From the NCBI GenBank assembly GCA_965662235.1, contig CBFIGY010000010.1:18403-82402 (forward strand): a stretch of DNA of 64,000 nt. Reading direction: 5' to 3'. Positions 2,140 to 38,948 of the stretch are shown here, piece by piece (within the stretch, counting starts at the first letter, position 1; each line of letters opens with the position of its first letter). The position numbers were made by a program, and so were the translations under genes. The notes below the pieces were generated by a model, which was not told the DNA's origin, made no database searches, and worked only from the letters and a program-made list of their open reading frames with translations. The stretch is from an uncultured bacterium (GTDB lineage: Bacteria > SAR324 > NAC60-12).

Positions 2140-2325
2140 CGCCCAACCGGTAATCTCCTTGATCTTTGGTCACAGGGCCGCTATCAAGGACCGCTGTGGG
2201 TGTGCCAGCGTGGCTGAATCACTCAGAGCCCAACCCAGGAGCATCCGGCTCCTTTAATTGAACCCGGAAGGTGGCTCCAGAAGCACCCTCTGCATCTGCC
2301 AGCCGGGCCTGAGTCAAGAGTACCC

Positions 2326-3336: not shown

Positions 3337-3404
3337 CCCCATCGCCCGCAAACGGGGCCGCTCCGAGGCCCCTTCCTTCCTCCTCTCCCCAACCTCAGAC
3401 TGAA

Positions 3405-4238: not shown

Positions 4239-4297
4239 CCACCAACCTCTGTGTGTCCTGATTCTTTTGTCCTTTTCTTTCAAGCAGTTGGTCCTTC

Positions 4298-5800: not shown

Positions 5801-5941
5801 GAGAATGCCTGCAACAAGTGGGATCGGTCTTGAACAACACCTAGAAACACTGGCAGAATCCTAACAGATCAACTGGGTAGCGCCAAGCTTTTCATCAGGA
5901 CCCATCCGGTCCTTAAACTCCATGCATGACGGTGCTGGTTC

Positions 5942-7684: not shown

Positions 7685-7696
7685 GCTCAACCCCTT

Positions 7697-13741: not shown

Positions 13742-13743
13742 CG

Positions 13744-14244
13744 TCAGGAGTTGGAACGGGTGACAGCAGCCGTGACCACTTGCGCCACTGAGGGCAGCAC
13801 ATACGTTTCAATGCTTTCTCCCAGAAACGCGAGCTCCCGGACCAGCGAGGAGCTGATCTGGAACCGTTCTGGGCGTCCGAACAGGCAGAAGGTTTCAATT
13901 TCTGGAACAATGACCGCGTTTCCCAACGCCTGCTGCTGCTCCGGGTGAAAGTCGTCCACGCTCCGGAGACCCTTGACAATGGCGCACGCCTGCTTGCTCT
14001 GAGCATACCGAACCGTGGCGCCGGTGAACGAGTCAACGGTGACGTTTTCCAGCTGGTAGTGGTCAACGTAGGCCTGCATCATTTCCACACGTTCCTGCTG
14101 GGTGAACAGGTAGGCCTTGGTCGGATTTACCGCGGCGGCCCAGAAGACGTGGTCAAACTGCCGGGAGGCCCGGATCAGGATGTCCGCGTGTCCGAAGGTG
14201 GGCGGATTGGAGCTGATGGGATAGACCGCGATGTGGGAGGCCAT
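13744..14244 (-). CDS. coaD: Phosphopantetheine adenylyltransferase
   Basis: IAVYP..NPPTFGH, NPTK, KGLRSVDDF, ISSSLVRE. Confidence 0.9.
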   Translation of the reverse strand: MASHIAVYPISSNPPTFGHADILIRASRQFDHVFWAAAVNPTKAYLFTQQERVEMMQAYVDHYQLENVTVDSFTGATVRYAQSKQACAIVKGLRSVDDFHPEQQQALGNAVIVPEIETFCLFGRPERFQISSSLVRELAFLGESIETYVLPSVAQVVTAAVTRSNS

Positions 14245-14247
14245 GAG

Positions 14248-17004
14248 TCAAGACGATTGGGTTCGCGCCTGCTGCACCAAGTTGTGCAGGGTGGTGAGTG
14301 CTTGGAGTGGGGTCATTTGGTCGGGATCCAAGGACTTTAGGGTTTCCAGCCACTCGGGAGTCTCTGCAAACAGAGAGAGCTGTGCCGAAGCGGAAGCCGC
14401 AGCCGACCGAGTCCAGTCCGGTGCCGGCTCCTCGACCTGGGCCGGGCTCCGAGGGGGCAACGGCTGGGCGAGCTCAGGGAGACGGTGTCCCATGGAAGAC
14501 GCCTCCAGCTCCTGCATGACTTGCAGGGCGCGTTCCACAACCGGAGTCGGAATGCCTGCTAGGCGAGCAACCTGAACACCGTAGCTCTTGTTGGCCTCGC
14601 CAGCAACAATCTTCCGGACGAAGACGATTTCCTCTCCGTGTTCCTCGACGACAACGCTGAAGTTGGCCACTCCCTCAAGTTCCTCCGCTAGGGCGTTCAG
14701 CTCATGGTAGTGGGTCGCACAGAGCGTCAGGGCCCCGAGTTCATGAAGGTACTCCGCAATCGACCAAGCCAGGCTGATGCCATCGAAGGTGCTGGTCCCG
14801 CGGCCAATCTCGTCAAGTACGACCAGGCTCTGGGAAGTGGCTTGGTGCAAGATGGCGGCGGCTTCGTTCATTTCCACGAGAAAGGTGCTTTGGCCTTGAC
14901 TGAGGTTATCTGAGGCGCCAACCCGCGTAAAGATCCGATCCACCAAAACCAACTCGGCCTCCTCGGCGGCCACAAAGGATCCGGCCTGGGCCATCAGCAC
15001 ATTGAGCGCGATCTGCCGCATGAAGGTGCTCTTGCCGGCCATGTTCGGACCTGTCAGCAGCATGAGGCGGCATCCGGAGGCCTCCAGCGCAATGTCGTTG
15101 GGCACAAAGGGTTCTCCCAGGCGGATGCTCTCAATGACGGGGTGCCGGGAGTGCCGCAGGCGGATGCTCCCCGGAGCCCCCAGCGGCTTCAGCTGCGGCC
15201 GGACGTACCGGTTCTGTTCAGCAACATGAGCAAGCCCTGCCAGAACATCGGTCTCAGCCACCAGCTGGGCAGCCTGTTGGATGCGGGCGGTTTCCGCAAT
15301 CATCCGGGACTTAAGCTCCTGAAACAGCTCCTGTTCCAAGCGACCAATGCGCTCTTCAGCGGTGAGGATTTTTTCCTCAAACTCCTTGAGCTCCGGAGTG
15401 ATGTAACGCTCTGCATTGACCAGCGTCTGCTTGCGGATGTAGTGCTCAGGAACGGCGTCCTTGTGAGCGTTGCTGACCTCCAGGTAGTAGCCAAAGACCT
15501 TGTTGTAGCTGATCTTCAGGGAGCTGATGCCGGTGGTGTCACGTTCTCGCTGCAGTACCCGGTTGAGGAACTCCTTGGAGTTGCGGGAAATTTCCCGGAG
15601 CTCATCCAGTTCCTCTGAAACCCCCTCTGCCATGTAGCCTCCCTCAGAAAGCCGGTGGGCAGGATGCTCTAGCAACTGTGTCTCTAGCAGCTCCAACAGA
15701 TCCGTCAGCGGGTCGAACTCGGTCCCAATCGCCTGAAGCCGTGAGGCTTCAAGACGCTGGTAGAAGACGGGAAGCTGCTGCAGGGGCTCCAGCGACTCCC
15801 GGAGGCCAACAAGGTCTGGAATGCCTGCAACAGGCAGGCTGAGGCGTCCGATGAGCCGGGGCAGGTCCTGGACCGTCTTGAGCAGGTTGCGCAGCTCTTC
15901 TCGGAGGAGGAACTGACGGGAGAACTCTTCCACGGCGTCGTGGCGTTCAGCGATGGACGATGCCTGCAGCAGCGGACGTCGCAGCCAGTGCCGCAGGAGG
16001 CGGGCGCCCATGGGGGTAACGGTCTGGTCGAGGACGTGAAAGAGCGTGTGCCGTTTTTGTCCAGATTGGGCCTCAAACAGCTCGAGGTTCCGGAGGGTGG
16101 TCTCATCAAGGAGCATGGCCTGCTCCACCGCATGCAGCCGAATCGACGTCAGGTGCGTGAGGTCGCACATCTGCGTGTCCTCAAGGTAGCGCAGAACGGC
16201 TCCTGCGGCCCGGAGGCCATGGGGAAAGTCCTCAATGCCAAAACCGGCCAGGTTGAGCGTCTTGAAGTGCCGGCACAGGTTGCGATGCGCGGCTTCTTCG
16301 TCGAAGTGATAGGGGTCAATGAGCTGGCAGCGGCCCGGGCTGGCTTCCGGACTGGACGAGGCCTCTGCAAGGTGAGGCGACACCTGGTCCAGCAGCTGAG
16401 CGAGGCGCTGTGTGAGGGCTTCCAAAAATTCCGACTCTGCGGTGGAGCGACTCTGCGGCAGCAGGATCTCCTGAGGGTCCAACTGAACGAGGAAGTCATA
16501 AAATCGGGGCAACTGGCTGAGCGCAAACTCACACAGCTCATACTCCCCGGTGGAGACGTCCGCAAAGGCGACTCCGAGCTTCTGGGCCTTGAGGTCAACC
16601 GCAGCCGCAAGGAGGTAGTTGTTGCGGTCTGGGTCAATGAGCTGAGGCGACACCGTTGTGCCAGGGGTGACAATCCGGACGACCTCTCGGTTGACGATCT
16701 TGCCGGTGGCCTGGGCAGGGTCCTCGGTCTGATCGCAGATGGCCACCTTGTAGCCTGCTGCAGTCAGCTTGTTGAGGTACTGCTCATAGGCCCGCACCGG
16801 GACCCCGCACATGGGCAATGCGCCTTCCTTCTTCTTGTCCCGAGACGTCAGGGCAATCTGCAGCACCCGTGCGCCAATCACCGCGTCTTCCCCAAACATC
16901 TCAAAGAAGTCCCCCATCCGGAAGAAGAGGATCTTGTCCGGATGCTGACGCTTGGCGTCTTGGAACTGACGCATCATCGGCGTCTCAGTGGGCGGTGCGC
17001 TCAT
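14248..17004 (-). CDS. mutS: DNA mismatch repair protein MutS
   Basis: TPMMRQ, FRMGDFFE, TGPNMAGKST, DEIGRGTST, SYGVQVARLAG. Confidence 0.97.
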   Translation of the reverse strand: MSAPPTETPMMRQFQDAKRQHPDKILFFRMGDFFEMFGEDAVIGARVLQIALTSRDKKKEGALPMCGVPVRAYEQYLNKLTAAGYKVAICDQTEDPAQATGKIVNREVVRIVTPGTTVSPQLIDPDRNNYLLAAAVDLKAQKLGVAFADVSTGEYELCEFALSQLPRFYDFLVQLDPQEILLPQSRSTAESEFLEALTQRLAQLLDQVSPHLAEASSSPEASPGRCQLIDPYHFDEEAAHRNLCRHFKTLNLAGFGIEDFPHGLRAAGAVLRYLEDTQMCDLTHLTSIRLHAVEQAMLLDETTLRNLELFEAQSGQKRHTLFHVLDQTVTPMGARLLRHWLRRPLLQASSIAERHDAVEEFSRQFLLREELRNLLKTVQDLPRLIGRLSLPVAGIPDLVGLRESLEPLQQLPVFYQRLEASRLQAIGTEFDPLTDLLELLETQLLEHPAHRLSEGGYMAEGVSEELDELREISRNSKEFLNRVLQRERDTTGISSLKISYNKVFGYYLEVSNAHKDAVPEHYIRKQTLVNAERYITPELKEFEEKILTAEERIGRLEQELFQELKSRMIAETARIQQAAQLVAETDVLAGLAHVAEQNRYVRPQLKPLGAPGSIRLRHSRHPVIESIRLGEPFVPNDIALEASGCRLMLLTGPNMAGKSTFMRQIALNVLMAQAGSFVAAEEAELVLVDRIFTRVGASDNLSQGQSTFLVEMNEAAAILHQATSQSLVVLDEIGRGTSTFDGISLAWSIAEYLHELGALTLCATHYHELNALAEELEGVANFSVVVEEHGEEIVFVRKIVAGEANKSYGVQVARLAGIPTPVVERALQVMQELEASSMGHRLPELAQPLPPRSPAQVEEPAPDWTRSAAASASAQLSLFAETPEWLETLKSLDPDQMTPLQALTTLHNLVQQARTQSS

Positions 17005-17252: not shown

Positions 17253-18161
17253 TTGCCATTGCTAAAGCCGTTTCTATTAAAATCATTTTCCTTACTGGTG
17301 TTGGTGCTCATTCAGCCCGTTCTACCGCAGGCGGCCTGTTACTTCATCCCGGCAGCCCCGGAGGTAGAGCAGTTGGCTCAACTGGAGCAGTGGGGGCGCT
17401 CCTTGCTCAATGAGTTTGTGGCACCCATCAAACCGTTGCCCAGCGCGGGCATTTCTAACCGGGAACTGGAGACGGAGTGTCACTTCGACGTTCGGTTGGA
17501 CCCGTCTTCCCCAATGTCTCTGTCGCTGGTTGCCCGCAACGCTCCAGTGGGCATTGACGGAGTGGAGGAGCTGAGCGCCTTCAATCCCGCCAACGTGGAG
17601 CAGGCGCTGCTGCGGATCATTTGGAACGCGAACCCGGAACAGCAGGAACCGATCTGTCGCAAGTACGCGGAGCGGCTTCGGCAGCAGTGTGGCGGCACCC
17701 GACCGATTCAGGTGCTTTCGGTGCTGCGGCAGCCTGAGCTTCAGGAGGCAGAAAGCGTGGTCTGGGGGGAGTTGGAGGCACTGGCTCCACGAGTCAAGGG
17801 GGTGACGGTGGTTTCAGAACGGATTCGCCTGCAAGCAGAGGAGCCCTGGGAAGCGAAGCTCAATCCACAAACGGAGGGGGTGATTCTCTTTGAGCTAGAG
17901 GGAGACCGCCTGAAGCAGCCTTCCTCGATGTGGGCCGGCTTTGTGGACATTCAGGTCGAGCTCAGCCTCTGGCGCAAGCAGGAGGCGACCTGGCAGAACG
18001 TGGGCGCCTTTGCTTCAGACCCGCAACGCATGCCGATCCGGAAGTGGAGCGAGCGAGACTCAGCTTGGGAAAAGCACTTTGGAAAAGCCGCAAAGAAGCT
18101 CATCAGCAAGTGGGATGAGCGGAGTTTACTAGAAACCTTTCAACGCCTAACTGCCCCATGA
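17253..18161 (+). CDS. Hypothetical exported protein
   Basis: TTG start, N-terminal hydrophobic signal, four Cys; ATGA overlap with the next gene. Confidence 0.65.
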   Translation: MPLLKPFLLKSFSLLVLVLIQPVLPQAACYFIPAAPEVEQLAQLEQWGRSLLNEFVAPIKPLPSAGISNRELETECHFDVRLDPSSPMSLSLVARNAPVGIDGVEELSAFNPANVEQALLRIIWNANPEQQEPICRKYAERLRQQCGGTRPIQVLSVLRQPELQEAESVVWGELEALAPRVKGVTVVSERIRLQAEEPWEAKLNPQTEGVILFELEGDRLKQPSSMWAGFVDIQVELSLWRKQEATWQNVGAFASDPQRMPIRKWSERDSAWEKHFGKAAKKLISKWDERSLLETFQRLTAP

Positions 18162-18625
18162 AGTTCCTCATGCCCCTGTTGCTCCTTCTGCTCAGTCTGC
18201 CCCTGCAGGCGGCAGAGGTTCCAAACTTCTGGATCCGGAACCTGGAAGGAGAGCGTTTTGACACGCGCAACCTACAGGGACGTCCCTTTGTGGCGAGCTT
18301 CTTTTTTGTCGCCTGTGTCCCCTGTCGGAAGGAAATTCCGGAGCTGCATGCCTTCATGACCAAGGAGCACCCGGACGTGCCTCTGCTGTTCATTAACCCC
18401 ATCAAGGAGGACAGCGAAGCAGACATTGCTCGCTTCGCCGAGACCCTAGGAGTTCCCAAGTCTTACTTTTACCGAGACAGCTTCAGTGCCGTCAGCCGAA
18501 AGTTCTTCAGCCGGGAGAAGATCGGCTTCCCCACGATCATCGGCGGGCAGAACGGCCAGCAGCTGTTTCGTTTCCCGGGCCTTCCTGAGGGCGCCCTGGC
18601 CACCATCCGCAAGGAACTAAAATGA
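18158..18625 (+). CDS. TlpA/ResA-like thioredoxin-fold protein
   Basis: Signal peptide; CVPCRKEIP active site; GFPT cis-Pro loop. Confidence 0.85.
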   Translation: MKFLMPLLLLLLSLPLQAAEVPNFWIRNLEGERFDTRNLQGRPFVASFFFVACVPCRKEIPELHAFMTKEHPDVPLLFINPIKEDSEADIARFAETLGVPKSYFYRDSFSAVSRKFFSREKIGFPTIIGGQNGQQLFRFPGLPEGALATIRKELK

Positions 18626-19782
18626 AGAAGCTTATCATCGTGCTGGGCCTCTGGCTCCTTCCACTGGGAGTATGGGCTCAGAAGCCTCCGGCGGGTTTGG
18701 CCCCCATGGGCGCTTTGGGGGATTTCTCTGAAATGGAGAAGACCATCCTGTTCAACTCGTTGCAGGAGTACCTTTCGACCCATTACGCCCTTGCCTCTCA
18801 GAAGGCTTTTGAACAGGCTCAGGATGCTGCGTTTGAGGAACTCGATTATGAGGAATGCACAGAGGATCAGTGCTTTGCGGTCATTCAACAGATTCTGCAG
18901 GTGGATAACCTGTTCCTCTTCAATGTTACCCGAGAGGGCACTTTTACGCAGCTTTCGCTGACGGCTGTGAACCTCGACAGCGAGCGACTGGTCCGGACGG
19001 CCGTGTGTGACCAGTGTGGCATTGGCGAGTTGAACGCCCAAGTGGAGGGCATGGTGCTCAAAATTGTGGAAGCAACTCAACCCGCCTCAGTTGCTGCCAG
19101 TGAATCCGTAGCGCCTGCAGGAACCCGGACGGATGCTGCGGCAGGAACCCCGGAGCCAGCGTCACCACCGGAGCCGGAACCTGTTGCTGAAAAACCCTCC
19201 TCCGCGCCGGAGCCTGTGGTACAGGCAGATCAACCCGCCTCAGTTGCCGCCAGTGAATCCGTAGCGCCTGCAGGAACCCAGACGGATGCTGCGGCAGGGA
19301 CACCGGAGCCAGCGTCACCACCGGAACCTGTTGCTGAAAAACCCTCCCCTATGCCGGAGCCTGTGGTACAGGCAGAGCCGGAGCCCGAACCAGAGGTCCG
19401 TACGTCTCAATCGTCGGGCTCCAATTGGATCTGGCACGCTGTAACCTTGGGCGTTACAGGAGTCGCGATGCTACAGGCAAAGAGTGCCGCAGATGATTAC
19501 AACACCCTCTCCAGCCGCAATAAAGAACTCGCCAGCCTCTATGCCAGCAACCCAAGTGCGAGCTACAGCGCCGAGTACACTAGCAACCAAAGCGAAATGA
19601 AGTCTCTCAAGTCTTCTGCAGAAACGTATGACCTGATCACTTACATCGGCTTGGGCGTGGAGGTGTACCTGTTGCTCTTTACCGGTTCTGGAGACGAGAC
19701 CGCCTATCAGCCCAATTCGCGACCCATGCGGGTCCTCGCGACCAACGATTCCTTCAAGGTGAGATTCCAATGGCAGTTTTAA
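18622..19782 (+). CDS. Exported hypothetical protein with Pro/Ala/Glu repeat linker
   Basis: Signal peptide; Cys-containing N-domain (ECTEDQC, CDQC); two hydrophobic segments; C-terminal VRFQWQF. Confidence 0.75.
   Translation: MKKLIIVLGLWLLPLGVWAQKPPAGLAPMGALGDFSEMEKTILFNSLQEYLSTHYALASQKAFEQAQDAAFEELDYEECTEDQCFAVIQQILQVDNLFLFNVTREGTFTQLSLTAVNLDSERLVRTAVCDQCGIGELNAQVEGMVLKIVEATQPASVAASESVAPAGTRTDAAAGTPEPASPPEPEPVAEKPSSAPEPVVQADQPASVAASESVAPAGTQTDAAAGTPEPASPPEPVAEKPSPMPEPVVQAEPEPEPEVRTSQSSGSNWIWHAVTLGVTGVAMLQAKSAADDYNTLSSRNKELASLYASNPSASYSAEYTSNQSEMKSLKSSAETYDLITYIGLGVEVYLLLFTGSGDETAYQPNSRPMRVLATNDSFKVRFQWQF
19078..19377 (+). repeat. Intragenic tandem duplication (153 bp + 147 bp)
   Basis: Units start CAACCCGCCTCAGTTGC at 19078 and 19231; near-identical with a 6-bp indel. 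Confidence 0.95.
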
Positions 19783-20291
19783 AAACCAGCGCCCTTCTGC
19801 TGAGCAGCCTCCTTTTCTTGGGGTGCGGATCTCAAACCCTTGAGGATGAAGGATTGGAGAGCAAGACGATCGAAGAAGCGGCCTCCACAAGTACTGGAAG
19901 CACAGGTTCGGGGGGTACAAGCAGTACGGAGTTTACTGTAGTAAGTACAACGCCTGCAGATGGCGCAACCAACGTTTCTACCAACACTCAGATCTCTCTG
20001 ACTTTCAGTGATGATCTGGGCCTCTATGGTGCAGGAACCTCCACGACATGTTCTGAGCAGGTCTTTCAACTTTCTACAGATAATTTTTCTAGCTGTATTG
20101 GTTGGGACTACAGCAGTGGGTATTTTTATACAGTGAATGGTTCAACCATTACTCTGGAGACTCCAACATTGAGTGCCAGCACCACTTACCAGTTGAAGGT
20201 TGTGCCATCTGCGAGCAGTGGGCAATTGACACTGACATCCCTAAGCAGCATCCCAGTTACTTCCTCCACAATCTCTTTCACCACTCAGTAG
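19770..20291 (+). CDS. Ser/Thr-rich lipoprotein with bacterial Ig-like (Big_5/SbsA-type) domain
   Basis: Lipobox FLGC; VVSTTPADGATNV..ISLTFSD and LSASTTYQLKV motifs; lower GC than flanks. Confidence 0.75.
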   Translation: MAVLKTSALLLSSLLFLGCGSQTLEDEGLESKTIEEAASTSTGSTGSGGTSSTEFTVVSTTPADGATNVSTNTQISLTFSDDLGLYGAGTSTTCSEQVFQLSTDNFSSCIGWDYSSGYFYTVNGSTITLETPTLSASTTYQLKVVPSASSGQLTLTSLSSIPVTSSTISFTTQ

Positions 20292-20403
20292 TTCCTGCAT
20301 CGTGCCGTTTTCGTAGCATTGCGGCAAAAGGGTGGCTATGCTGCCGGAGGGTGGGGGGCCATCAAGGTGGCGCCCCTTGTTCAGCACTCAGCAGAGCCTA
20401 CTC

Positions 20404-21261
20404 ATGCCTCCTCTCTACCAACGGCTGGTTTCCTCAGACTCCTCGCTGGTGGTGTACGACAACCCCGGCCCGCGCTTTGATGGGGTCTATCACTACCATC
20501 CTGAGTTTGAGCTGAGCCTCATCTGCAACACCAAGGGCCTGGCGGCTGTGGGAGAGAACATCCACCCCATCTCGCCTGGGGACATGATCCTGATGGGCCC
20601 GAACATTCCACATTACTGGAACAACGATGGGATGGAGCTGGAGGGAGCGCCGTCTCGGATCATGCTGGTGTTCAAGTTCACCGAACACTTTCTGGGGAAG
20701 GGGTTTCTTGAGCTTCCGGAGAGCCGCAAGCTGAACGAGTTTCTGCGCAAGGCAGCACAGGGCATCCGTTTTCTGGAGCCCGTCAGCAGTCGGGTACGGG
20801 AGCTGATGCTGGAGATTGAGGGCATTCCACCGGGGCTGCTGCGGCTTTCCCGGTTTCTGGAGCTGCTGAGCCTGGTCACCGAAACCGAGCAGCTGGAGAC
20901 GCTTTCGGGGCATCCGACGGGGTTTCGGGGAAATGCGGTGCAAAACGAGCGCATTGACCAGGTTTACAAGTACGTGATGAAGCACAATGCCGAGTCCATC
21001 TCCCTGACGGAGGTTGCCGAGCACATCCACATGAGTCCGGAGGCGTTCTGCCGTTTCTTCAAACGGAGCACGGGCAACACCCTCAATGAGTTCATTCAGA
21101 AAACCCGGATTGCCCGGATCTGCCACGAGTTGATGGAGAGCGAGGCTGGCATCACGGACATTGCTTACGAGCACGGGTTCAACAACCTCTCCAACTTCAA
21201 CCGTCAGTTCCGCAAGCACATGAACCTGACCCCGCGAGAGTACCGCAAGCTCTTTCAGTAG
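20404..21261 (+). CDS. AraC family transcriptional regulator (cupin sensor)
   Basis: YHYHPEFEL, GPNIPH, FCRFFK, GFNNLSNFNRQF, TPREYR. Confidence 0.93.
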   Translation: MPPLYQRLVSSDSSLVVYDNPGPRFDGVYHYHPEFELSLICNTKGLAAVGENIHPISPGDMILMGPNIPHYWNNDGMELEGAPSRIMLVFKFTEHFLGKGFLELPESRKLNEFLRKAAQGIRFLEPVSSRVRELMLEIEGIPPGLLRLSRFLELLSLVTETEQLETLSGHPTGFRGNAVQNERIDQVYKYVMKHNAESISLTEVAEHIHMSPEAFCRFFKRSTGNTLNEFIQKTRIARICHELMESEAGITDIAYEHGFNNLSNFNRQFRKHMNLTPREYRKLFQ

Positions 21262-21330
21262 CCCCTTTTGTGTGCTGAGCCGTCACAGATGAAAGCGACT
21301 GAACGGGGCCCCGCCCCTTGGGGCTGAAGT

Positions 21331-21391
21331 CAAAATAGTATCAATTTTGGCTAAGTCAGGCATAGTCTCCTCCCCCACTCTCACGTATAAC
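21331..21391 (+). promoter_or_regulatory. Putative AraC-activated promoter of the nan operon
   Basis: Imperfect direct repeats CAAAATAGTATC (21331) and TAAGTCAGGCAT (21352), 21 bp apart; TATAAC at 21386. Confidence 0.45.
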
Positions 21392-21628
21392 ATCCTCCAC
21401 TCTTGCCAAACCACTTGGCAATGAGCTTCCAGGGAAGCCGACCGGGGCTTTTATTTCCTCGAAAGTCCGATGCTTTCTGGCTTCCTCTGACTTTGGACTC
21501 CCTTGGTGTTCCGGGAGCGTGCGCGGATTCCGTCCCACTCCCGGAACAGTACCTCTGGCCGAGCGACCTCTTTTTGTGCGTCGTTTGACCTCTTCAGGCG
21601 TCCAGCCCTCATCCGTCACCAGGCACTT

Positions 21629-22528
21629 ATGACGAACACCACGCAGGATCGGGGAGCGTTTCACGGGATCTACATTCCCATGATCACTCCTTTTCTCAGG
21701 CAGGACGAATCCTTGGATTTGGCTGCAACGGAGGCTCTGATTGAATTCTTGATTGCCCATAACGTTCATGGCCTTTACGTGGGGGGGAGCACGGGGGAGG
21801 CGTTCGCGCAGTCGACAGACGAGCGAGCGACCTTCCTCCGTCATGTTGCCTCTGTGGCCAAGGGGCGGCTCCGGCTGGTGGCGCATGTGGGCAGCCTGGC
21901 CACAAGAGATGCCCTGCACCTTGCAGAGGTGGCGGCTGCCAGCGGGTATGAGGCTACCTCGTCGGTGCCTCCGTACTACTACGCCTTTTCCCGGGAAGAG
22001 GTGCTGGGCTACTACGAGGAGTTGGCTTCGGCCACCTCGCTTCCGCTGCTCATTTACAACATTCCCGGAAATGCGCGGTTTCGCTTTTCGCTTGAGGACC
22101 TGAGCCGCTTGCTGCAGCACCCGTCCATCGTTGGGGTCAAACACACCGAGACGGACTTCTTCATCATCGAGCGCCTCAAGGCGCGGCATCCTGAGGCCAT
22201 TGTGTTCAATGGTCCGGATGAGATGCTCATTGCCGGACTGACGATGGGGTGCGATGGCGGAATCGGAAGCACCTATAACGTCATTCCAGAGACCTACGTC
22301 CGCCTCTATGAAAGCTTCCGTCGCGGCGACTGGCACCGAGCAATTGTGCTCCAACAAGAAGCCAATGCGCTCACGGAGCTTCTGCTGCAGGTGGGCCTGT
22401 ACAATGGCCTCCGGCACCTGCTCCGGCGACGAGGCGTGGACACCGGCGTCAGTCGACGTCCCTTTGCGCCGTTGACGGCAGAGGGAGCAGCGAAGCTGGA
22501 TTCCTTTTATGAACAGCACCTTTCATGA
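21629..22528 (+). CDS. nanA: N-acetylneuraminate lyase (DapA family)
   Basis: YVGGSTGE, IYNIP, GVKHT (Schiff-base Lys), DGGIGSTYN; AGE epimerase in the same cluster. Confidence 0.85.
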   Translation: MTNTTQDRGAFHGIYIPMITPFLRQDESLDLAATEALIEFLIAHNVHGLYVGGSTGEAFAQSTDERATFLRHVASVAKGRLRLVAHVGSLATRDALHLAEVAAASGYEATSSVPPYYYAFSREEVLGYYEELASATSLPLLIYNIPGNARFRFSLEDLSRLLQHPSIVGVKHTETDFFIIERLKARHPEAIVFNGPDEMLIAGLTMGCDGGIGSTYNVIPETYVRLYESFRRGDWHRAIVLQQEANALTELLLQVGLYNGLRHLLRRRGVDTGVSRRPFAPLTAEGAAKLDSFYEQHLS

Positions 22529-22556
22529 GCCAGGCGGATTCGCCAATGGCGCCTTA

Positions 22557-22585
22557 GACCCGGTGCTGGGCACTGGGTCGGTTTT
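22557..22585 (+). terminator. Stem-loop after nanA
   Basis: GACCCGGTGC-TGG-GCACTGGGTC then GGTTTT. Confidence 0.5.
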
Positions 22586-22712
22586 GTCAATCCTTGAACC
22601 CTGAGGAGGAATTATGAAGCTCCCATTGCTTAACCGCATTGGAAACAGCGGGCTAAGCTTGGCACAGGTAATCCCGAATCTCACTCATCTCTTCACCCCT
22701 ACGGAGAAACCC

Positions 22713-24329
22713 ATGAAGGCCTTCAAAGTCCTCGCACTTGCGTCGCTGCTGGTGTTCCAGTCCGTATCGCTCTGGGCCGCCAGCCCCAACAGCAACCAGC
22801 TTTCAGATGTCCGTGTGCGTCAGGCGATTGCCTACGCCATCGACATGGACACCATCGTGGAGACCCTCTTTGAGGGCATGGCCATTGCGGCAGACAGCTC
22901 CATCCCCAACGGCTCCTTCAAGGCTCCGGGACTGCCCCGTTACACGTATGATCCGGACAAGGCCCGTCAGCTGCTCAAGGAAGCCAACTGGGACTCCAGC
23001 CGGGTGCTGGACGTGGTGTATTACTATGGTGACCAGACGACGGCTGACCTGATGGCAGCAATCCAGGCCTACCTGGCAGATGTGGGCGTCCAGATGACCT
23101 TCCGCAAGCTGGAAGGCGACGTGGGTGCTCAGCTGCGGACGCTTCCGGAAGACCCGGTCAATGGCCCTGCGGCAATCACGTGGGACCTGGGCTACGGAGC
23201 CAAGGCGGCGTTGGCCCTGCAGGAGTACTACAACAATTATGAGACCGGCAAGAACGCCAACACTCCCGGATCGCCTGAGCTGGACCAGCTGGTGGCTGCC
23301 ATCAACAGCACCGCAGATGTGGAGAAGCAGCGAGCGGCCTTCTTTGCCATTGAGCGGTATGAGATGGAAAACCTCTTTGTGCTGCCCCTGTACTACCAGC
23401 AGATGTTCATCTATGAGAGCAAGCGGCTCAACCGCAACGGTGGACTCTACGGAAACGCTCAGTACAACTACGACTGGAACATCGTGGACTGGACCGTCAC
23501 CCCAGATGCCAATGGCAAGCAGGTGCTGCGGACCAATACCGGCCCCGTCGAGTTCTTTGAGCACTCCTGGTTCAACCCGGGACTGTACATCTACACGAAG
23601 GTGCTCTTTGACCGCCTGATCACGGCCGACGGCTCTTTGGCACCGTCGAATCCGCAGATGGCGAAGTACTACAACCTGAGTGACGATGGCAAGACCCTGA
23701 CCGTACAGCTCATGGACGGCCTCACCTGGCACGACGGCACTCCGATCACCGCTGAGGAGATCAAGTGGAACGTTGAGTTTGCCAGCAAGGTTCCGGTGAT
23801 TCACCCCATCTTCAAGCAGACCTTCTCTTCCTTGAAGGGCGCTCAGGCCTTCACCGACGGTGCGGCCTCGGAGATTGCCGGCATCACCACCCAAGGCAAC
23901 ACCCTCACCTTCAGCTTTGAGACGCTGGACCCGAACGTGCTGCTGACGTTCTCGCAGTGGGCGCCGCTGCCCCGCAAGCACATCGGCAACGCGGATCCGC
24001 TGAAGTTCCAGCAGCACCCCTTCTGGCAGAATCCGATTGGCTCCGGTCCGTTCCGGGTCAAGGAAGTGCAGATGAACGACTACCTCGTGATGGTGCCGTT
24101 TGAGGGCTACCACGGAGGACGGGCCAAGCTGGATGAGATTGTGGCGTACCCCAGTGGCGACAACGATCCGAATGTGGTCAAGAACGCTGCTGCTGGTCAG
24201 CTCGACTACGGGTTCACCAAGAACGTCTCAGACGTCCAGTCGCTTCAGGCCATGGACCACATGCGGGTGACCCCAGTGGACATTCCGTATACCCGTGTGC
24301 TTTGGATCAACAAATTCCCGAAGCAATAG
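22713..24329 (+). CDS. Family-5 (DppA/OppA-type) ABC substrate-binding protein, circularly permuted
   Basis: Signal peptide; DVRVRQAIAYAID block occurs before the SDDGKT..WHDG and PIGSGPF blocks; an alternative upstream ATG at 22614 also has an RBS. Confidence 0.85.
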   Translation: MKAFKVLALASLLVFQSVSLWAASPNSNQLSDVRVRQAIAYAIDMDTIVETLFEGMAIAADSSIPNGSFKAPGLPRYTYDPDKARQLLKEANWDSSRVLDVVYYYGDQTTADLMAAIQAYLADVGVQMTFRKLEGDVGAQLRTLPEDPVNGPAAITWDLGYGAKAALALQEYYNNYETGKNANTPGSPELDQLVAAINSTADVEKQRAAFFAIERYEMENLFVLPLYYQQMFIYESKRLNRNGGLYGNAQYNYDWNIVDWTVTPDANGKQVLRTNTGPVEFFEHSWFNPGLYIYTKVLFDRLITADGSLAPSNPQMAKYYNLSDDGKTLTVQLMDGLTWHDGTPITAEEIKWNVEFASKVPVIHPIFKQTFSSLKGAQAFTDGAASEIAGITTQGNTLTFSFETLDPNVLLTFSQWAPLPRKHIGNADPLKFQQHPFWQNPIGSGPFRVKEVQMNDYLVMVPFEGYHGGRAKLDEIVAYPSGDNDPNVVKNAAAGQLDYGFTKNVSDVQSLQAMDHMRVTPVDIPYTRVLWINKFPKQ

Positions 24330-24412
24330 AGTAACCTGAAGGCTTCCTCCTCTCCTCCTGCTCTCTCCGGAAAGGGGAGGCGGAGGCCTCTTCCCTGTTG
24401 TTGCGCTGGAGA

Positions 24413-25372
24413 ATGTACGCTTACTTTGTCAGACGGCTGCTGTTTCTGATCCCAATGCTGCTGGTCATCAGCTTCTTCATCTACTTGGGAATGGAGCTGA
24501 CGCCGGGAGACATTGTCTCCTACATGATCAGTCCGGAGCTGATCGCAGAGATCAGTCCAGAGGAGCTGGCCGCGATGCGTCAGGCCCTGGGGCTGGATGC
24601 ACCGTTCATGATCCGGTACCTGCACTGGCTAGGAGGCGTTCTGCAGGGCGATTTTGGCTACAGCCTAGCCAGTGGCGTTCCGATCAAGGACATTGTGTTT
24701 GATCGCCTTCCTGCGACCCTAGAGCTTTCAGCGGTTGCCCTTCTGTTTTCCACCCTGTTCGGCTGCATTCTGGGAACACTCAGTGCCCTCAACCGGGGCT
24801 CTGCAAGCGACAATGCCCTGACCGTGTTCGGCATGCTGGGGGTGTCCATTCCTGAATTCATCTTTGGGCTGTCGGCAATTGTCTTGTTTGCGCTGGAACT
24901 GAACTGGCTTCCCGTGGGCGGACGCCTGATGCCCGGTTACGAGACCTTCTGGGACCGTCTTCCGCACCTAGTGCTACCGGCGCTGGTGCTTTCCTTGACC
25001 ATGACCGCTGGGGTGATGCGGTACTCGCGTTCCAGCATGCTGGATGCAATGAACCGAGAGTTCATCAAGACCGCCCGGAGCAAGGGCCTTCCGGAGTGGC
25101 GGGTCAACTTTCTGCACGGCTTTCGGGTGGCTCTGACGCCAGTGGTGGTGCTGATCGGTTTTCGGCTGCCGTTGCTGATCGGGGGCACCGTGATTGTCGA
25201 GCAGGTGTTTCAGTGGCCTGGAGTTGGGGAACAGTTTGTCATTGCCGTTCGGGCGCAGAACTACCCTCTGATCATGATGATCGCGTTTTTGTCGGTCACC
25301 GCAGTGCTGCTGGCGAGCTTCCTCATCGACCTGCTGACTGCCCTGCTCGATCCTCGTGTCCAGCTGGAGTAG
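24413..25372 (+). CDS. ABC permease (DppB/OppB-like)
   Basis: GDFGYSL, RLPATLEL, TARSKGL, LLDPRV. Confidence 0.93.
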   Translation: MYAYFVRRLLFLIPMLLVISFFIYLGMELTPGDIVSYMISPELIAEISPEELAAMRQALGLDAPFMIRYLHWLGGVLQGDFGYSLASGVPIKDIVFDRLPATLELSAVALLFSTLFGCILGTLSALNRGSASDNALTVFGMLGVSIPEFIFGLSAIVLFALELNWLPVGGRLMPGYETFWDRLPHLVLPALVLSLTMTAGVMRYSRSSMLDAMNREFIKTARSKGLPEWRVNFLHGFRVALTPVVVLIGFRLPLLIGGTVIVEQVFQWPGVGEQFVIAVRAQNYPLIMMIAFLSVTAVLLASFLIDLLTALLDPRVQLE

Positions 25373-25376
25373 CTCC

Positions 25377-26309
25377 ATGAATGCCAACGTGCCCCCTTCC
25401 AAGACACGGCTGGATCGGCAGTTTGACCGCATCCGGGAACGTGAAGAGCAGGGAACCTTTCGTCCAGGCGTGCAGAACCGGGTTCTGCGCAAGCTGCTGT
25501 CCAACAAGCTGGCTCTGGTAGGAGGGTGCTTTGTGCTCCTGACCCTGTTCTCTTCCCTCTTTGCCCCTCTGCTGACTCGGCATGACCCCCTCAAGGTGGA
25601 CCTGCGTGCTCGGCTCCAGCCTCCTTCCGTGGAGCACGTTCTGGGAACGGACAAGATTGGTCGGGACATTTTTTCCCGCCTCATTCACGGGGGGCGGATT
25701 TCCATTTTGGTGGGGCTTGGAAGTGCCTTGGGCGCCGCGTTTATCGGAGTCTCCATTGGCGTCTATGCTGGGTATCGGGGCAACTGGCTCGATGGCCTCT
25801 TCTTGCGACTTTCCGAAATCGTCACGGCCTTTCCGCAGATCATCCTAGTGCTGATCCTGGTTTCAATTGTGGGACAGGGGTTGGAGAACCTGATTGTCAT
25901 CTTTGTCCTCACAGGGTGGGGACCGATGTACCGGATGATGCGCGCTCAGGTGCTGTCCTTGCGCGAGGAGGAGTACGTCCAGGCCCTGCAGGCGTTCGGA
26001 CTGGGCAACGCGACCATCTGCTACAAGCACATCCTCCCCAATGCGCTGGGGCCCATCATGGTCAACATCACTCTGACAACTGCCATGTTCATTCTGCAAG
26101 AAGCCGGGTTGAGCTTCTTGGGGCTGGGGGTGCCGTTGCAGATTCCAACCTGGGGAAACCTGCTCAATGTGGCGCAGGACCTCCGTATTTTGCAGAACTA
26201 CTGGTGGGTGTGGCTCCCGTCTGCAGTGATGATCTCCCTGTTTGTCCTGGCCATCAATTTTGTGGGAGACGGCCTCCGGGACTCCACTGATCCGAGCTTG
26301 CAGGGGTAG
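25377..26309 (+). CDS. ABC permease (DppC/OppC-like)
   Basis: LGTDKIGRD, HILPN, LSFLGLG, NFVGDGLRD. Confidence 0.93.
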   Translation: MNANVPPSKTRLDRQFDRIREREEQGTFRPGVQNRVLRKLLSNKLALVGGCFVLLTLFSSLFAPLLTRHDPLKVDLRARLQPPSVEHVLGTDKIGRDIFSRLIHGGRISILVGLGSALGAAFIGVSIGVYAGYRGNWLDGLFLRLSEIVTAFPQIILVLILVSIVGQGLENLIVIFVLTGWGPMYRMMRAQVLSLREEEYVQALQAFGLGNATICYKHILPNALGPIMVNITLTTAMFILQEAGLSFLGLGVPLQIPTWGNLLNVAQDLRILQNYWWVWLPSAVMISLFVLAINFVGDGLRDSTDPSLQG

Positions 26310-26318
26310 GAAAACGTG

Positions 26319-27323
26319 ATGTCGCAGGAAACCATTCTCAGTGTCCGGAACCTGAAGACCTACTTCTACACGAACAACCGCTGCAACAAGGCGGTGAACG
26401 GGGTTTCGTTTGAGGTCAAGAAGGGCAAAACGCTCTGCATCGTCGGGGAAAGTGGCTGTGGCAAAAGCGTCACTGCCGCGACCATCATGCAACTGCTGCC
26501 CAAGCTCTCACGGATTGAAGAGGGGGAAATCATCTACCACAGCGAGTCCGGAGACCTTCGCCTAGACCAGCTGGAGCGCAACGGCAAGCAGATGCGCGCG
26601 CTCCGGGGGGCGGACCTGGCCATGATCTTTCAGGACCCGATGACCGCCTTCAATCCGGTTTACACCATCGGTTGGCAGATTGGAGAAAACCTGAAGTACC
26701 ACACGGACCTGCGCGCGCAGGAGGTTCGCCAGCGGACGGTGGAGTTGCTCCGCGAGATGGGCATTCCGCTTCCGGAACAGCGGGCGTCTGAGTACCCTCA
26801 CCAGTTCTCCGGGGGCATGCGGCAACGGGCGATGATTGCCATGGCGATGGCCTGCAATCCCAAGTTGCTGATTGCCGACGAACCCACCACGGCTCTGGAC
26901 GTGACCATTCAGGCGCAGATCTTTGACCTGATGGCACAGCTCAAGGCAGAGCACAACACCGCCATCATGCTGATCACACACGATATGGGCGTGGTGGCTG
27001 AACTGGCAGATGAGGTAGCCGTTATGTACATGGGGCACATCGTGGAGAGTGGAACCGTGGAGGACGTGCTCCGGACTCCGGCCCACCCCTACACCAAGGC
27101 CCTGCTCAACTCGATTCCGGTGCTGGGACGGGGGAAGCAGCAGGACATTGAACCCATCCGAGGGGCGACCCCGGATCCTTACAATCGCCCGCCCGGGTGC
27201 CAGTTTCAGCCCCGGTGCGACTTTGCCAGCGACCGCTGTGGCGTGATGCCAGACGAGCGCTCCCTCAGCCCAACCCATGCCGTCCGCTGCTGGCACTCTG
27301 AGCAGGTCCTTCGTCATGTCTGA
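26319..27323 (+). CDS. ABC ATP-binding protein (DppD/OppD-like)
   Basis: [25 protein letters not shown]-terminal Cys domain. Confidence 0.93.
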
Positions 27324-28365
27324 GTCCTCCGTCATCCTCCAATTAAAGGGCGTAAAGACGCACTTTCCGGTCCGGAAGGGAGTCTTCAAACGGGTGGTGG
27401 GCCACGTCAAGGCGGTGGATGGCGTGGACCTGGAGGTGTACCGCGGCGAGACGCTGGGGCTGGTGGGAGAAAGCGGTTGCGGCAAGACCACCTTGGGAAA
27501 GTCCATCCTGCAACTCGTCCATGCCACAGAAGGAGAGATCCTTTACCACGATCAGGAGCGCACGCACAACCTCCGTCAGTTGAACAAGGAAGAGCTGAAG
27601 TCCATCCGGAAGAAGCTGCAGATCGTCTTTCAGGATCCTCATTCGTCGCTCAACCCGGCACTGACGGTGTTCGATTCCCTGCAGGATCCGCTCAAGGCCT
27701 ATGGCGTCCGGTCCCGGGCAGAGCGGCGCCAGATCATTGGAGACCTGCTGGAGGCGGTCAACATGCGCCGCGAGCAGATGGACAATTACCCGCACGAATT
27801 TTCCGGAGGCCAGCGGCAGCGCATTGGCATTGCCCGGGCGCTGTGCATTGGGCCGGAGCTGATCGTCTGCGATGAAGCGGTCAGTGCGCTGGATGTGTCC
27901 ATTCAGGCGCAGGTGCTGAAGCTCCTCAAGCAGCTCAAGGACGAACGGAACCTGACGTACCTGTTCATCACCCATGACCTGAGCGTGGTCGAGTACATCA
28001 GTGACCGGGTGGCGGTGATGTACCTTGGGAAAATTGTGGAGCTGGCCAACAGCGAGGAGCTGTATGCCAACGCACTGCATCCGTACACGCAGGCGCTGCT
28101 CTCTGCGATTCCGGTAGCCGACCTGGACCGGAAGTCCCACCGGACGCCGCTGGAAGGCGATGTTCCGAGTCCGGTGGATCCTCCATCTGGGTGCCCGTTC
28201 CACCCTCGCTGTCCTCAGCGTCAGGAAAATTGCCAGACCATGGTTCCGCCGCTGAAGAAGTACCGGATCAATGGCAAGGACCACTTTGCCGCCTGTCACT
28301 ACGCTGAAACCTTTGCGCGCGCTCCCCTTGAGGAAGCGCCGGCACCGCGCTCCGGAACACCGTGA
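27316..28365 (+). CDS. ABC ATP-binding protein (DppF/OppF-like)
   Basis: GESGCGKT, FSGGQRQR, DEAVSALD, GCPFHPRC. Confidence 0.93.
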   Translation: MSESSVILQLKGVKTHFPVRKGVFKRVVGHVKAVDGVDLEVYRGETLGLVGESGCGKTTLGKSILQLVHATEGEILYHDQERTHNLRQLNKEELKSIRKKLQIVFQDPHSSLNPALTVFDSLQDPLKAYGVRSRAERRQIIGDLLEAVNMRREQMDNYPHEFSGGQRQRIGIARALCIGPELIVCDEAVSALDVSIQAQVLKLLKQLKDERNLTYLFITHDLSVVEYISDRVAVMYLGKIVELANSEELYANALHPYTQALLSAIPVADLDRKSHRTPLEGDVPSPVDPPSGCPFHPRCPQRQENCQTMVPPLKKYRINGKDHFAACHYAETFARAPLEEAPAPRSGTP

Positions 28366-29600
28366 GCCACTTGGCCTCCCCTTCTTCCGAGACTCCCATG
28401 TCCCTCAGTCCCCAGTTGTTGAGTGCCTCAGGCAGAGATGCCCTGAAGCAGCTCTACCGAGACGGCTTGCTGCACGATACCCTGCCCTTTTGGCTGAAGC
28501 ACAGCGTTGACCGTGAATTCGGAGGCTTCACCATCTGCCTGGGCCAGGACGGAACCGTCATTGACACCGACAAGGGAATCTGGACGCAGGGACGATTCAC
28601 GTGGTTGCTGGCGACGCTTTATGCCGAGGTGGAGCCCAACCCCGAGTGGCTGGCCTTGGCCAAGCACGGCATCGACTTCCTCCGACGTTACGGCTTTGAC
28701 GACGATGGACGGATGTTCTTTTCGGTCACGCAGGAGGGGCGGCCTCTGCGGAAGCGCCGTTACGTGTTTTCAGAAGCCTTTGCTGTTGCCGCATTGGCCG
28801 CGTATGCCCGTGCGTCCGGAGAGGCGCAGGCAAAGGAAGAAGCCCTGGCGGTGTTCCGGCTCATGCAGCGGTGCCTTTCGGAACCGGGGCTGCTGCCACC
28901 AAAAATGATTCCGGGAACGCGGGACACCAAGGGACTGGCGGTGCCGATGATTCAAATCGTCACGGCTCAGATCCTCCGTGAGGTCCTCGATGATCCGGAA
29001 GAGTGCAACCAGGTCATCGACCGCGCCATTGCCGAAATTCGGCAGGACTTCATGAAGCCGGAGTTCAAGGCGGTGCTGGAGACGGTTTCCACCTCCGGCG
29101 CCTTCTTGGATCACTTTGAGGGACGGATGCTGTGTCCGGGACACGCAATTGAAGCCGCGTGGTTCATCCTCAAGGAATCGGCCTACCGCAACGGCGATGC
29201 GGCGTTGCAGGAGCTGGGACTGACGATTCTCGACTGGATGCTCGAGTGGGGCTGGGATCAGGAATACGGAGGGGTGCTCTACTACCGCGACGTCAAGGGG
29301 TTGCCGGTGCAGGAGTACTGGCAGGACATGAAGTTCTGGTGGCCACACAACGAGGCGATCATTGCCACCCTGCTCGCCTACACGCTGACCCAGGATGAAA
29401 AGTATGCCTGGTGGCACAAACTGGTCCACGACTGGGCCTATGCGCACTTTCCGGATCGGGAGCACGGCGAGTGGTTTGGCTACCTGCACCGTGATGGACG
29501 CCTCTCTGTGCCGCTCAAGGGGAACTTCTGGAAGGGGCCCTTTCACCTGCCCCGGATGCAGCTGGAGTGCTGGAAGAACCTAGAGGCCTTTACCCGATGA
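28362..29600 (+). CDS. N-acylglucosamine 2-epimerase (AGE family)
   Basis: DKGIWTQGR, PGHAIEAAWF, KFWWPHNE, WFGYLHRDG, WKGPFHLPR; start may be the ATG at 28398. Confidence 0.92.
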   Translation: MSHLASPSSETPMSLSPQLLSASGRDALKQLYRDGLLHDTLPFWLKHSVDREFGGFTICLGQDGTVIDTDKGIWTQGRFTWLLATLYAEVEPNPEWLALAKHGIDFLRRYGFDDDGRMFFSVTQEGRPLRKRRYVFSEAFAVAALAAYARASGEAQAKEEALAVFRLMQRCLSEPGLLPPKMIPGTRDTKGLAVPMIQIVTAQILREVLDDPEECNQVIDRAIAEIRQDFMKPEFKAVLETVSTSGAFLDHFEGRMLCPGHAIEAAWFILKESAYRNGDAALQELGLTILDWMLEWGWDQEYGGVLYYRDVKGLPVQEYWQDMKFWWPHNEAIIATLLAYTLTQDEKYAWWHKLVHDWAYAHFPDREHGEWFGYLHRDGRLSVPLKGNFWKGPFHLPRMQLECWKNLEAFTR

Positions 29601-29636
29601 CCGAGCCGCAGGGCGTGGCGGGTCAAGTCGCTTGAC

Positions 29637-30056
29637 CTAACGGGCGATCCGGCGGATGCCGGCCTGGCACCCGAGCTTGAGGAAAGGGGTGTTGCGCGGG
29701 TCCTGCGGGTCGAGGTACAGGCCCTGAGCGCTGGGGTGCTGTTCAAAGTTGTCCACATCGCTGTCCTGCCAGTTGCAGAGCACCTCCGCGCTCCGGACCA
29801 CTTCTCGACGGGTGCAGCGCAGCGTCTTCCCAGCGATCATCATCCACCCAGTGGAGTCCTGCCAGCTGTTTTCAATGACACAGGCCCATCCCTGTCCCTC
29901 AAAAACGGGCCCGTCTTCCACAATCCGGAGGACCTCTTTGGGGCCGTAAACGCCCTCACGGTAGAACTCAAGCTGCCACTCGAAGTAGCTTTGGGCCTGC
30001 ACCGGCAGCCCCAGCAGCAGCCCCACTCCGAGCAAGCCCCCTTGCAGTGCCTTCAT
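29637..30056 (-). CDS. Hypothetical exported protein
   Basis: Signal peptide ending VQA-Q; four Cys; 4-bp overlap with the upstream kinase gene. Confidence 0.65.
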   Translation of the reverse strand: MKALQGGLLGVGLLLGLPVQAQSYFEWQLEFYREGVYGPKEVLRIVEDGPVFEGQGWACVIENSWQDSTGWMMIAGKTLRCTRREVVRSAEVLCNWQDSDVDNFEQHPSAQGLYLDPQDPRNTPFLKLGCQAGIRRIAR

Positions 30057-38809: not shown

Positions 38810-38948
38810 GTAACCTTTACGGATAGGGGTGGTGAACTTCAACAAAGAAGCGCCCTTTCTATCGCATTTTGTAAAAAGAGGCAAACCCGATCCCTTGAGC
38901 GCTGAACAGATGGAAAGGGAGGGCTTGGCCCGATCTGGTGTAAAAGAA

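Follow-up and report, generated by a model that had tools for sequence, protein, structure and literature searches.

In a 64,000-nucleotide (nt) stretch of DNA from an uncultured SAR324 bacterium (assembly GCA_965662235.1, contig CBFIGY010000010.1, positions 18,403 to 82,402; hereafter the window), we identified a substrate-binding protein of an ATP-binding cassette (ABC) importer, P0001, which by its sequence is almost certainly a natural circular permutation of a family-5 (cluster C) binding protein. Past its signal peptide, the chain would open at the D.RVRQA helix that normally starts the C-terminal half, reach the normal C-terminus, continue through a linker of 8 residues to the strand that is usually N-terminal, and end in the loop just ahead of its own starting point. 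The permuted form is conserved across numerous bacteria, most of them marine, and almost always lies next to genes for sialic-acid breakdown. Its gene neighbourhood makes the transporter a probable importer of sialic or nonulosonic acids; that a permuted binding protein serves sialic-acid import, taken as one statement, is only slightly less probable.

The open reading frame (ORF) of P0001 is a single open frame on the forward strand (22614..24329) with two candidate starts. Translation from 22713 reads MKAFKVLAL... and gives 538 amino acids (aa), whereas the ATG at 22614 has a stronger Shine-Dalgarno sequence (GAGGAGG) and would put 33 extra residues before the signal peptide; given the 538-aa homologues and the position of the signal peptide, we favour 22713. 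A terminator-like hairpin was also seen at 22557-22579, upstream of this Shine-Dalgarno sequence and of the ATG at 22614. The signal peptide was judged by eye from the sequence as MKAFKVLALASLLVFQSVSLWA, with AS following. The motifs on which the initial annotation had built its proposal of a permutation were all found where it had placed them: the stretch running from LSDVRVRQAIAYAID to YDPDKARQLL occupies residues 30-88, YDWNIVDWTV residues 253-262, and PDANGKQ of the linker residues 264-270 (nt 23502-23522), followed by LFDRLITADG (from residue 298), SDDGKT, WHDGTP and PIGSGPF, and by VLWINKFPKQ at the C-terminal end.

Profile and structure-database searches returned the two parts of the family in swapped order. 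The Pfam profile SBP_bac_5 (PF00496) matched P0001 in two stretches (E = 4.5e-58, 197.6 bits, gathering cut-off 32.4), with the first part of the profile, from position 4 to 207 of 368, mapping to residues 314-533, which is the exchanged order that the initial annotation had expected of this profile. Similarly, the NCBIfam models DppA, NikA, GsiB, and CntA matched residues 24-240 with their positions ~260-516, and the Opp4A and Opp5A models matched residues 297-530 with positions ~58-283. Searching the sequences of the Protein Data Bank (PDB), we found that residues 26-240 correspond to DppA/NikA-type positions ~260-480 and residues 256-533 to positions ~16-260, the best chain being 5ISU (Listeria CtaP Lmo0135; E = 2.3e-25). 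A collinear full-length alignment to DppA or OppA, which had been named as evidence against a permutation, was not seen: among all PDB sequences no solved chain aligned with P0001 collinearly, the chains aligning in swapped pieces instead. The junction segment alone gave only chance matches in the PDB, and no solved chain spans the junction.

We further compared P0001 with the collinear metagenomic protein P0123 (567 aa), which differs from it in having the normal N-to-C order and a lipoprotein signal. BLASTP returned two high-scoring segment pairs (HSPs), one aligning residues 266-536 of P0001 to residues 52-324 of P0123 (49% identity, E = 2e-90) and the other aligning residues 30-262 to residues 333-566 (51% identity, E = 1e-74). 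Only residues 263-265 and the signal region of P0001 fall outside both HSPs, and no half is duplicated or lost. The old C-terminus reads ...DWHIQDWVIG in P0123 and ...YDWNIVDWTV in P0001, where TPDANGKQ then leads to the old first strand (KVLYTNGGPEEFFE in P0123, VLRTNTGPVEFFEH in P0001). The new termini fall in a loop that reads NKFPNADGTPAALADYRVRQ in P0123, P0001 ending in ...NKFPKQ and its mature part opening with ...NSNQLSDVRVRQ. The canonical chain order, in which the N-lobe segments stand ahead of the C-lobe led by D.RVRQA, was thus not found in P0001 by Pfam, NCBIfam, the PDB, or the comparison with P0123.

The rearranged order proved to be conserved. The best 120 matches of a word-indexed protein search covered 95-100% of the query at 58-100% identity and were 513-572 aa long. 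Using two module hidden Markov models (C-module and N-module) derived from an alignment of 43 homologues (A1), we found the C-module ahead of the N-module in 121/121 proteins (P0001-P0121); within A1, D265 of the linker is nearly invariant and G268 is invariant. A pattern search of a collection that holds a single genome per species gave 222 matches, 196 of which encode relatives. The 80 related loci kept for neighbourhood work come from Deltaproteobacteria/SAR324 metagenome-assembled genomes (MAGs), Spirochaetes, Rhodobacteraceae/Paracoccaceae, Hyphomicrobiales, Oceanospirillales, KSB3, and many SAR11-type single cells, and the listed loci include complete chromosomes. An exhaustive search of 1.84 billion cluster representatives yielded 27,744 relatives (E <= 0.001), with P0123 among the best, and the 150 best representatives at 50% identity comprised 111 collinear proteins, 12 permuted proteins (five of them full length, namely P0122, P0124, P0125, P0129, and P0149), one tandem N-C-N-C fusion, and 26 fragments. 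A search of the ESM Atlas returned generic SBP_bac_5 clusters only. One relative, P0134 (459 aa), has about 150 initial residues unrelated to binding proteins followed by the middle of a collinear P0123-like protein (51% identity to P0001), and probably reflects a chimera in the contig or the gene call.

At the locus itself, we placed contigs from four public marine/aquatic metagenome runs (four studies) on positions 22600-24400. Contigs of three runs (X2, X3, and X6) bridge the junction (~23499-23522) with no joints and no indels, and those of the fourth (X5) do not cover 23450-23506, which is a gap in contig cover only. A misassembly at the junction, the other outcome that had been set against the proposal, was therefore not seen, and permuted homologues are abundant. 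The permuted order is inherited and kept, not a one-off. Because P0001 shows swapped homology to P0123 at ~50% identity, because the order is kept in all 121 proteins and recurs in the 196 genome stretches, and because contigs run across the junction, the natural permutation put forward in the initial annotation is borne out by these comparisons.

We also modelled the fold of P0001 with AlphaFold2 using A1. The model reached a mean predicted local distance difference test score (pLDDT) of 91.3 and a predicted template-modelling (TM) score of 0.86; pLDDT was 89-96 at the junction (residues 251-280) and low at residues 1-26. In a Foldseek search of the PDB, the top matches were all cluster-C proteins, namely 8UPI (a Mesorhizobium peptide binder), CtaP, OppA, MppA, NikZ, DppA, and SatA (5Z99), each over 231-308 alignment columns (about half the length) at TM scores of 0.30-0.39, as is expected of a sequential aligner given a permutant. 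Domain III of DppA, which we take to begin near mature residue 261, would on that numbering be entered by the first hinge strand just before the cut in P0001. Both long hinge strands appear to be retained in the model, as strands 223-236 and 517-532. With both segments whole, the same three-domain clamp should form, and the ~50% identity to collinear P0123 together with the confident model suggests that the whole cluster-C fold is retained.

Canonical cluster-C proteins (E. coli DppA 1DPP/8Z1Y, NikA, OppA, and CtaP 5ISU) share PF00496 with P0001, are homologous to it in both halves, and likewise work with two permeases and two oligo_HPY ATPases. P0001 differs in being rotated, starting at about DppA mature residue 272 and ending just before it, and in its ligand, which is likely a sugar acid, whereas theirs are peptides or metal chelates. 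Natural circular permutation has been described in other binding proteins, including glycine-betaine OpuAC/ProX, molybdate binders, and CysB (the accessible text of Lo and Lyu 2008, PMC2395249). As in P0001, the chain of a two-lobed ABC binding protein is rotated there with the ligand pocket retained; in contrast, those proteins belong to another structural cluster, and their permutation was found by structure only, at < 24% identity (same text of PMC2395249). Since the permuted and collinear forms compared here are ~50% identical within one subfamily, the event here would be recent and traceable.

To place the permuted proteins among their collinear relatives, the two modules were aligned separately and then joined. 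Input was the 71 of the 150 representatives with both modules at >= 80% coverage and every second A1 row, giving 93 rows (27 permuted, 66 collinear) after fragments, the tandem fusion P0207, and representatives with < 80% module coverage were dropped. In a quick tree of these rows, all 27 permuted proteins and collinear P0123, P0127, and P0128 form one clade (Shimodaira-Hasegawa-like approximate likelihood ratio test, SH-aLRT, 100), with P0130 as its sister. A careful tree with 200 bootstrap trees, built on a 33-row subset picked after the first tree was seen, recovered the clade of permuted proteins and these three metagenomic collinear sisters at 100/100 support. Within it, group A (P0001, P0122, P0124, and all close matches) stands apart from group B (P0125, P0129, and P0149). 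The permutation would thus have arisen within a sialic-linked clade of collinear proteins.

That it arose there twice, or once with a later reversion, is possible, though we lean against it. The maximum-likelihood trees join group B with collinear P0128 (SH-aLRT 97 in the quick tree, 94/93 in the careful one), the careful tree requires three changes of order, none of its 200 bootstrap trees has a single change, and the linkers differ, having 8 residues in group A (xPDxxGKx) and 5 in group B (DNTDG, DREDK). Against this, an approximately unbiased test did not reject monophyly of the permuted rows (P = 0.126, delta lnL 9.9), the cut lies in one and the same loop in both groups (between NKFP... 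and ...PLSDVRVRQ), and the starred branches force only one change.

Circular permutations usually arise through a tandem fusion whose outer halves are lost, the signal peptide being kept via an in-frame deletion. Here, too, the probable route is a duplication or fusion after which the outer halves disappeared. P0207 (1016 aa), a tandem of two complete and closely similar family-5 proteins in the order N-C-N-C with ~33% identity to P0001, could be the kind of intermediate from which a permutation is cut. A search for duplication intermediates among longer proteins of the close family, weak evidence in itself, gave four weak matches, all unrelated fusions, and no intermediate.

The gene neighbourhoods bear on when the link to sialic acid was made. 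The group B loci L091 and L092 carry NanA-like genes, with NanE in addition at L092 and YhcH at L091, and the P0123-like collinear loci (L081-L083) adjoin YhcH (DUF386), accompanied at L083 by an RpiR regulator; YhcH and RpiR are typical companions in nan clusters. Because both permuted groups stand by NanA-like genes and the collinear sister by YhcH and RpiR, the link to sialic acid may have been in place before the chain was permuted, although no NanA-like gene was found within 8 kb of L081-L083. The suggestion of the initial annotation that the permutation marks a class of nonulosonic/amino-sugar importers is supported by the gene neighbourhoods and may need narrowing, as the permutation may mark a subgroup and not define function.

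In the window, the gene of P0001 is followed directly by DppBCDF/OppBCDF-type partner genes, an arrangement conserved in related loci (Table 1). The initial annotation was also right in calling the cluster sialic-acid-type; it holds a NanA above the equivalog cut-off, an N-acylglucosamine 2-epimerase (AGE) family gene overlapping the last ATPase gene by 4 nt, two permeases, two ATPases, and an AraC-family regulator. The AraC gene, which also stands ahead of the cluster at locus L001 (95% identical), likely regulates it, judging from its position. The NanA ORF opens at a TTG at 21503, and its true start is probably an internal Met at ~21629. A promoter and terminator scan of 20000-30200 gave counts no higher than in shuffles.

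Table 1. Positions of the binding-protein gene, its segments, and the surrounding cluster in the window
Feature	Position	Strand	Evidence or remark
AraC-family regulator	20332..21261	+	Pfam HTH_18 2.1e-22, HTH_AraC, AraC_binding
N-acetylneuraminate lyase (NanA)	21503..22528	+	Pfam DHDPS 2.1e-72; NCBIfam NF003164 equivalog 307.5 bits, cut-off 281
Family-5 ABC substrate-binding protein P0001, almost certainly circularly permuted	22713..24329	+	538 aa; ATG 22614 as second candidate start
Predicted Sec signal peptide, residues 1-22	22713..22778	+	By-eye reading; ends ...SLWA, before AS
C-half segment, residues 30-262	22800..23498	+	BLASTP to P0123 333-566; DppA/NikA positions ~260-480
New linker TPDANGKQ, residues 263-270, old C-terminus to old N-terminus	23499..23522	+	Region between the two P0123 HSPs
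N-half segment, residues 266-536	23508..24320	+	BLASTP to P0123 52-324; Pfam positions 4-207 on residues 314-533
DppB-type permease	24398..25372	+	Pfam BPD_transp_1 5.2e-36, BPD_transp_1_N
DppC-type permease	25356..26309	+	Pfam BPD_transp_1 6.5e-31, OppC_N
DppD-type ATPase	26316..27323	+	Pfam ABC_tran 2e-26, oligo_HPY 2.5e-21
DppF-type ATPase	27277..28365	+	Pfam ABC_tran 6.2e-32, oligo_HPY 1.6e-19
AGE family protein	28362..29600	+	Pfam GlcNAc_2-epim 1.1e-45

These genes would encode a five-component Dpp/Opp-type ABC importer with P0001 as its periplasmic binding protein. The ligand of P0001 is most likely free sialic acid (N-acetylneuraminic acid, Neu5Ac, or another nonulosonic acid related to it), which the protein would pass on to the permease pair for uptake powered by the ATPase pair. 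Once inside the cytoplasm, the sugar would be cleaved by NanA to N-acetylmannosamine (ManNAc) and pyruvate, and the AGE-family protein is a probable ManNAc to N-acetylglucosamine (GlcNAc) epimerase. A pathway of NanA and AGE is of the Bacteroides type. The window organism would follow this route, and other carriers of the permuted protein the route through NanA, NanK, and NanE.

We then surveyed the neighbours of the 80 loci by tblastn (E <= 1e-8, coverage >= 50%, 8-kb flanks, complete on both sides at 55 loci). The search for nanA and AGE genes beside the homologues, which had been proposed as a check, found NanA-like genes at 68 of the 80 loci (51 of the 55 with full flanks) and AGE at 4. 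Other recurrent neighbours were GntR/FCD regulators (45/80), class-III aminotransferases (34), ROK kinases (30), the ManNAc-6-P epimerase NanE (28), sulfatases (23), RraA-like proteins (11), NanM (3), and YhcH (2). Pfam scans of individual loci gave ABC genes, DHDPS, NanE, and ROK in the SAR11-type L040; a sulfatase, DHDPS, GntR, the binding protein, ABC genes, and NanM in L044 (Thalassovita); GntR, the binding protein, ABC genes, a GDSL esterase, AGE, and YhcH in L036 (Oceanispirochaeta), with a NanA-like match by tblastn; and DHDPS, GntR, the binding protein, ABC genes, and ROK in L059. The NanA-like proteins of the window, L040, and L044 passed the NF003164 cut-off (3/3 tested), and no other transporter gene was seen among the Pfam-scanned neighbours in the window cluster and the scanned related loci.

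Several observations weigh against sialic acid as the ligand throughout. Near-identical single-cell genomes of SAR11 account for about 22 of the 80 loci, and the counts overstate independence accordingly. The best NCBIfam model for the window AGE, NF052547 (N-acyl-D-glucosamine 2-epimerase), scored 394 bits, under its cut-off of 600. Twelve of the 80 loci have no NanA-like gene, four of them with full flanks (L005, L006, L007, and L010), and the substrate at these four may differ. One of them, L006 (SAR324; 2249-7900 and 13586-15887), carries an HpcH aldolase, an aldo-keto reductase, a PhyH dioxygenase, an SDR protein, an amidohydrolase-aminotransferase fusion, an RraA-like protein, and an FAA hydrolase. 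Some members of the family may take up different or modified substrates, as the class-III aminotransferases and sulfatases suggest.

From these data one could argue that the permutation is real and the ligand another one: a sugar acid, an amino sugar, a modified nonulosonic acid (sulfated, de-N-acetylated, or an amino-sugar acid), or something peptide-like, the nan genes then belonging to a related but different pathway. We regard this as unlikely on the whole. In its favour are the sulfatases, class-III aminotransferases, and RraA-like proteins counted above, the gene content of L006, a further locus (L087) with GFO/IDH/MocA oxidoreductases and two aminotransferases, and the breadth of the AGE family, which also holds the mannose and cellobiose epimerases that the window AGE matches more weakly among NCBIfam models. 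On the other side, all three NanA proteins tested score above the curated lyase cut-off, NanE, the ROK kinase, NanM, and YhcH specifically accompany Neu5Ac catabolism, and the scanned nan clusters showed no further transporter. Import of sialic or related nonulosonic acids is the reading with the best support.

Some neighbours deserve mention in their own right. Roseobacter/Hyphomicrobiales nan clusters with the permuted protein are flanked by 1-3 sulfatases and a formylglycine-generating enzyme (L014, 2059-7122 and 13504-16414; L044, 3849-6151), which hints at sulfated sialic acids or sulfated sialoglycans as substrates. FAD-dependent oxidoreductases (FAD_binding_2 or FAD_oxidored) adjoin the transporter at L083 (13810-15444; collinear, metagenome), at L092 (4998-6743; permuted group B, metagenome), and at L002 (14421-16346; Spirochaetes MAG), and may act on a modified sialic acid. 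Gene content resembling that of L087-type loci occurs in Brucella ovis at BOV_A0345-A0355, which according to the accessible text of PMC10746171 combines GFO/IDH/MocA oxidoreductases and transporter subunits with a gene of the DapA/NanA family and a FadR regulator.

The window genome (3.47 Mb, 75 contigs, 96.9% complete) holds one copy of the permuted binding-protein gene, and a match was found in 6/41 related genomes and 2/25 genera (window genome included), a patchy spread. That the swapped order is an artefact, either a chimeric assembly or what is left of two tandem genes for binding proteins after breakage, might be argued from the draft state of this genome and from the existence of tandem-fused family-5 proteins such as P0207, and is so improbable that it can be set aside in view of the single 538-aa frame with its signal peptide, the constant order in close proteins, the complete chromosomes among the listed loci, the conserved linker, the confident model, and the junction bridged in three of four independent runs. 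Misassembly was likewise rejected on the 120 close full-length matches, the 196 genome stretches, the 121/121 order, and the bridging contigs.

The accessible text of the 2021 survey by Severi et al. (PMC8461474) distinguishes eight types of sialic-acid transporter (ST1-ST8), of which only ST3, SatABCD, is built on SBP_bac_5; SatA of H. ducreyi (PDB 5Z99/5YYB/5ZA4) is there the only published family-5 sialic-acid binding protein, and ST3 (its Table 1) comes from Actinobacteria and Pasteurellaceae and has four genes, SatC being a permease-ATPase fusion. Like SatABCD as described in that text, the P0001 system has the family-5 binding protein of an ABC importer and lies in nan clusters. In contrast, SatA is collinear and P0001 permuted, the fused SatC corresponds to two separate permeases and two separate ATPases in the window, and the P0001 family occurs mainly in marine Proteobacteria, Spirochaetes, SAR324, and SAR11. 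In PDB-chain match scores, P0001 did not group with SatA: the chains 5YYB/5Z99/5ZA4 matched query residues 32-92 only (~60 residues, E ~9e-8, 34 bits), far behind DppA, NikA, and CtaP. Because P0001 neither groups with SatA nor comes with a SatC-type fusion, its system is better regarded as a family-5 lineage of its own that was recruited to nan clusters, and against the types set out in that text it would fit none of the eight. In a full-text literature search, neither a permuted family-5 protein nor a P0001-type transporter proved to have been described; the figures and supplements of PMC8461474 (ST3 trees, Figs S5/S6) and bioRxiv supplements lay outside that search and could hide members.

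Elsewhere in the window, a forward-strand region just upstream of the AraC gene (17253-19782) contains two ORFs of 302 and 386 aa without a Pfam match, which flank a weak AhpC/TSA-like ORF, and then an ORF with a Big_5 domain. A 705-aa protein (9801-11915, +) has Peripla_BP_6 and ANF_receptor matches in its C-terminal 400 residues only, its N-terminal 300 being without a Pfam match. On the reverse strand, 37865-38884 encodes a DUF7354 protein with the Ig-like and C-terminal domains of the magnetotaxis protein MtxA.

Annotation pipelines call the genes of the closest relatives of P0001 peptide/nickel binding proteins, a name that is probably wrong for the substrate and that hides the rearrangement. 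The permuted P0001 and its collinear sister, which are ~50% identical and belong to the same well-supported clade, make an unusually clear-cut natural pair and offer a direct test of how chain rotation affects folding, hinge dynamics, and docking to the transporter. It is quite conceivable, as a tentative wider view, that a Dpp-type importer with a permuted binding protein represents a ninth origin of sialic-acid uptake beyond ST1-ST8, widespread in ocean bacteria (SAR11, SAR324, and roseobacters) and in gut metagenomes, with sulfatase and aminotransferase subgroups taking modified (e.g., sulfated) nonulosonic acids and with the permutation having arisen perhaps twice in one subfamily. If the ligand is as proposed, this would add a transporter family that goes without mention in the accessible text of the 2021 census (PMC8461474). 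It would also mean that abundant free-living marine lineages (SAR11, SAR324, and Rhodobacteraceae) scavenge sialic or nonulosonic acids, and would provide a testable statement on which compounds of marine dissolved organic matter they use.

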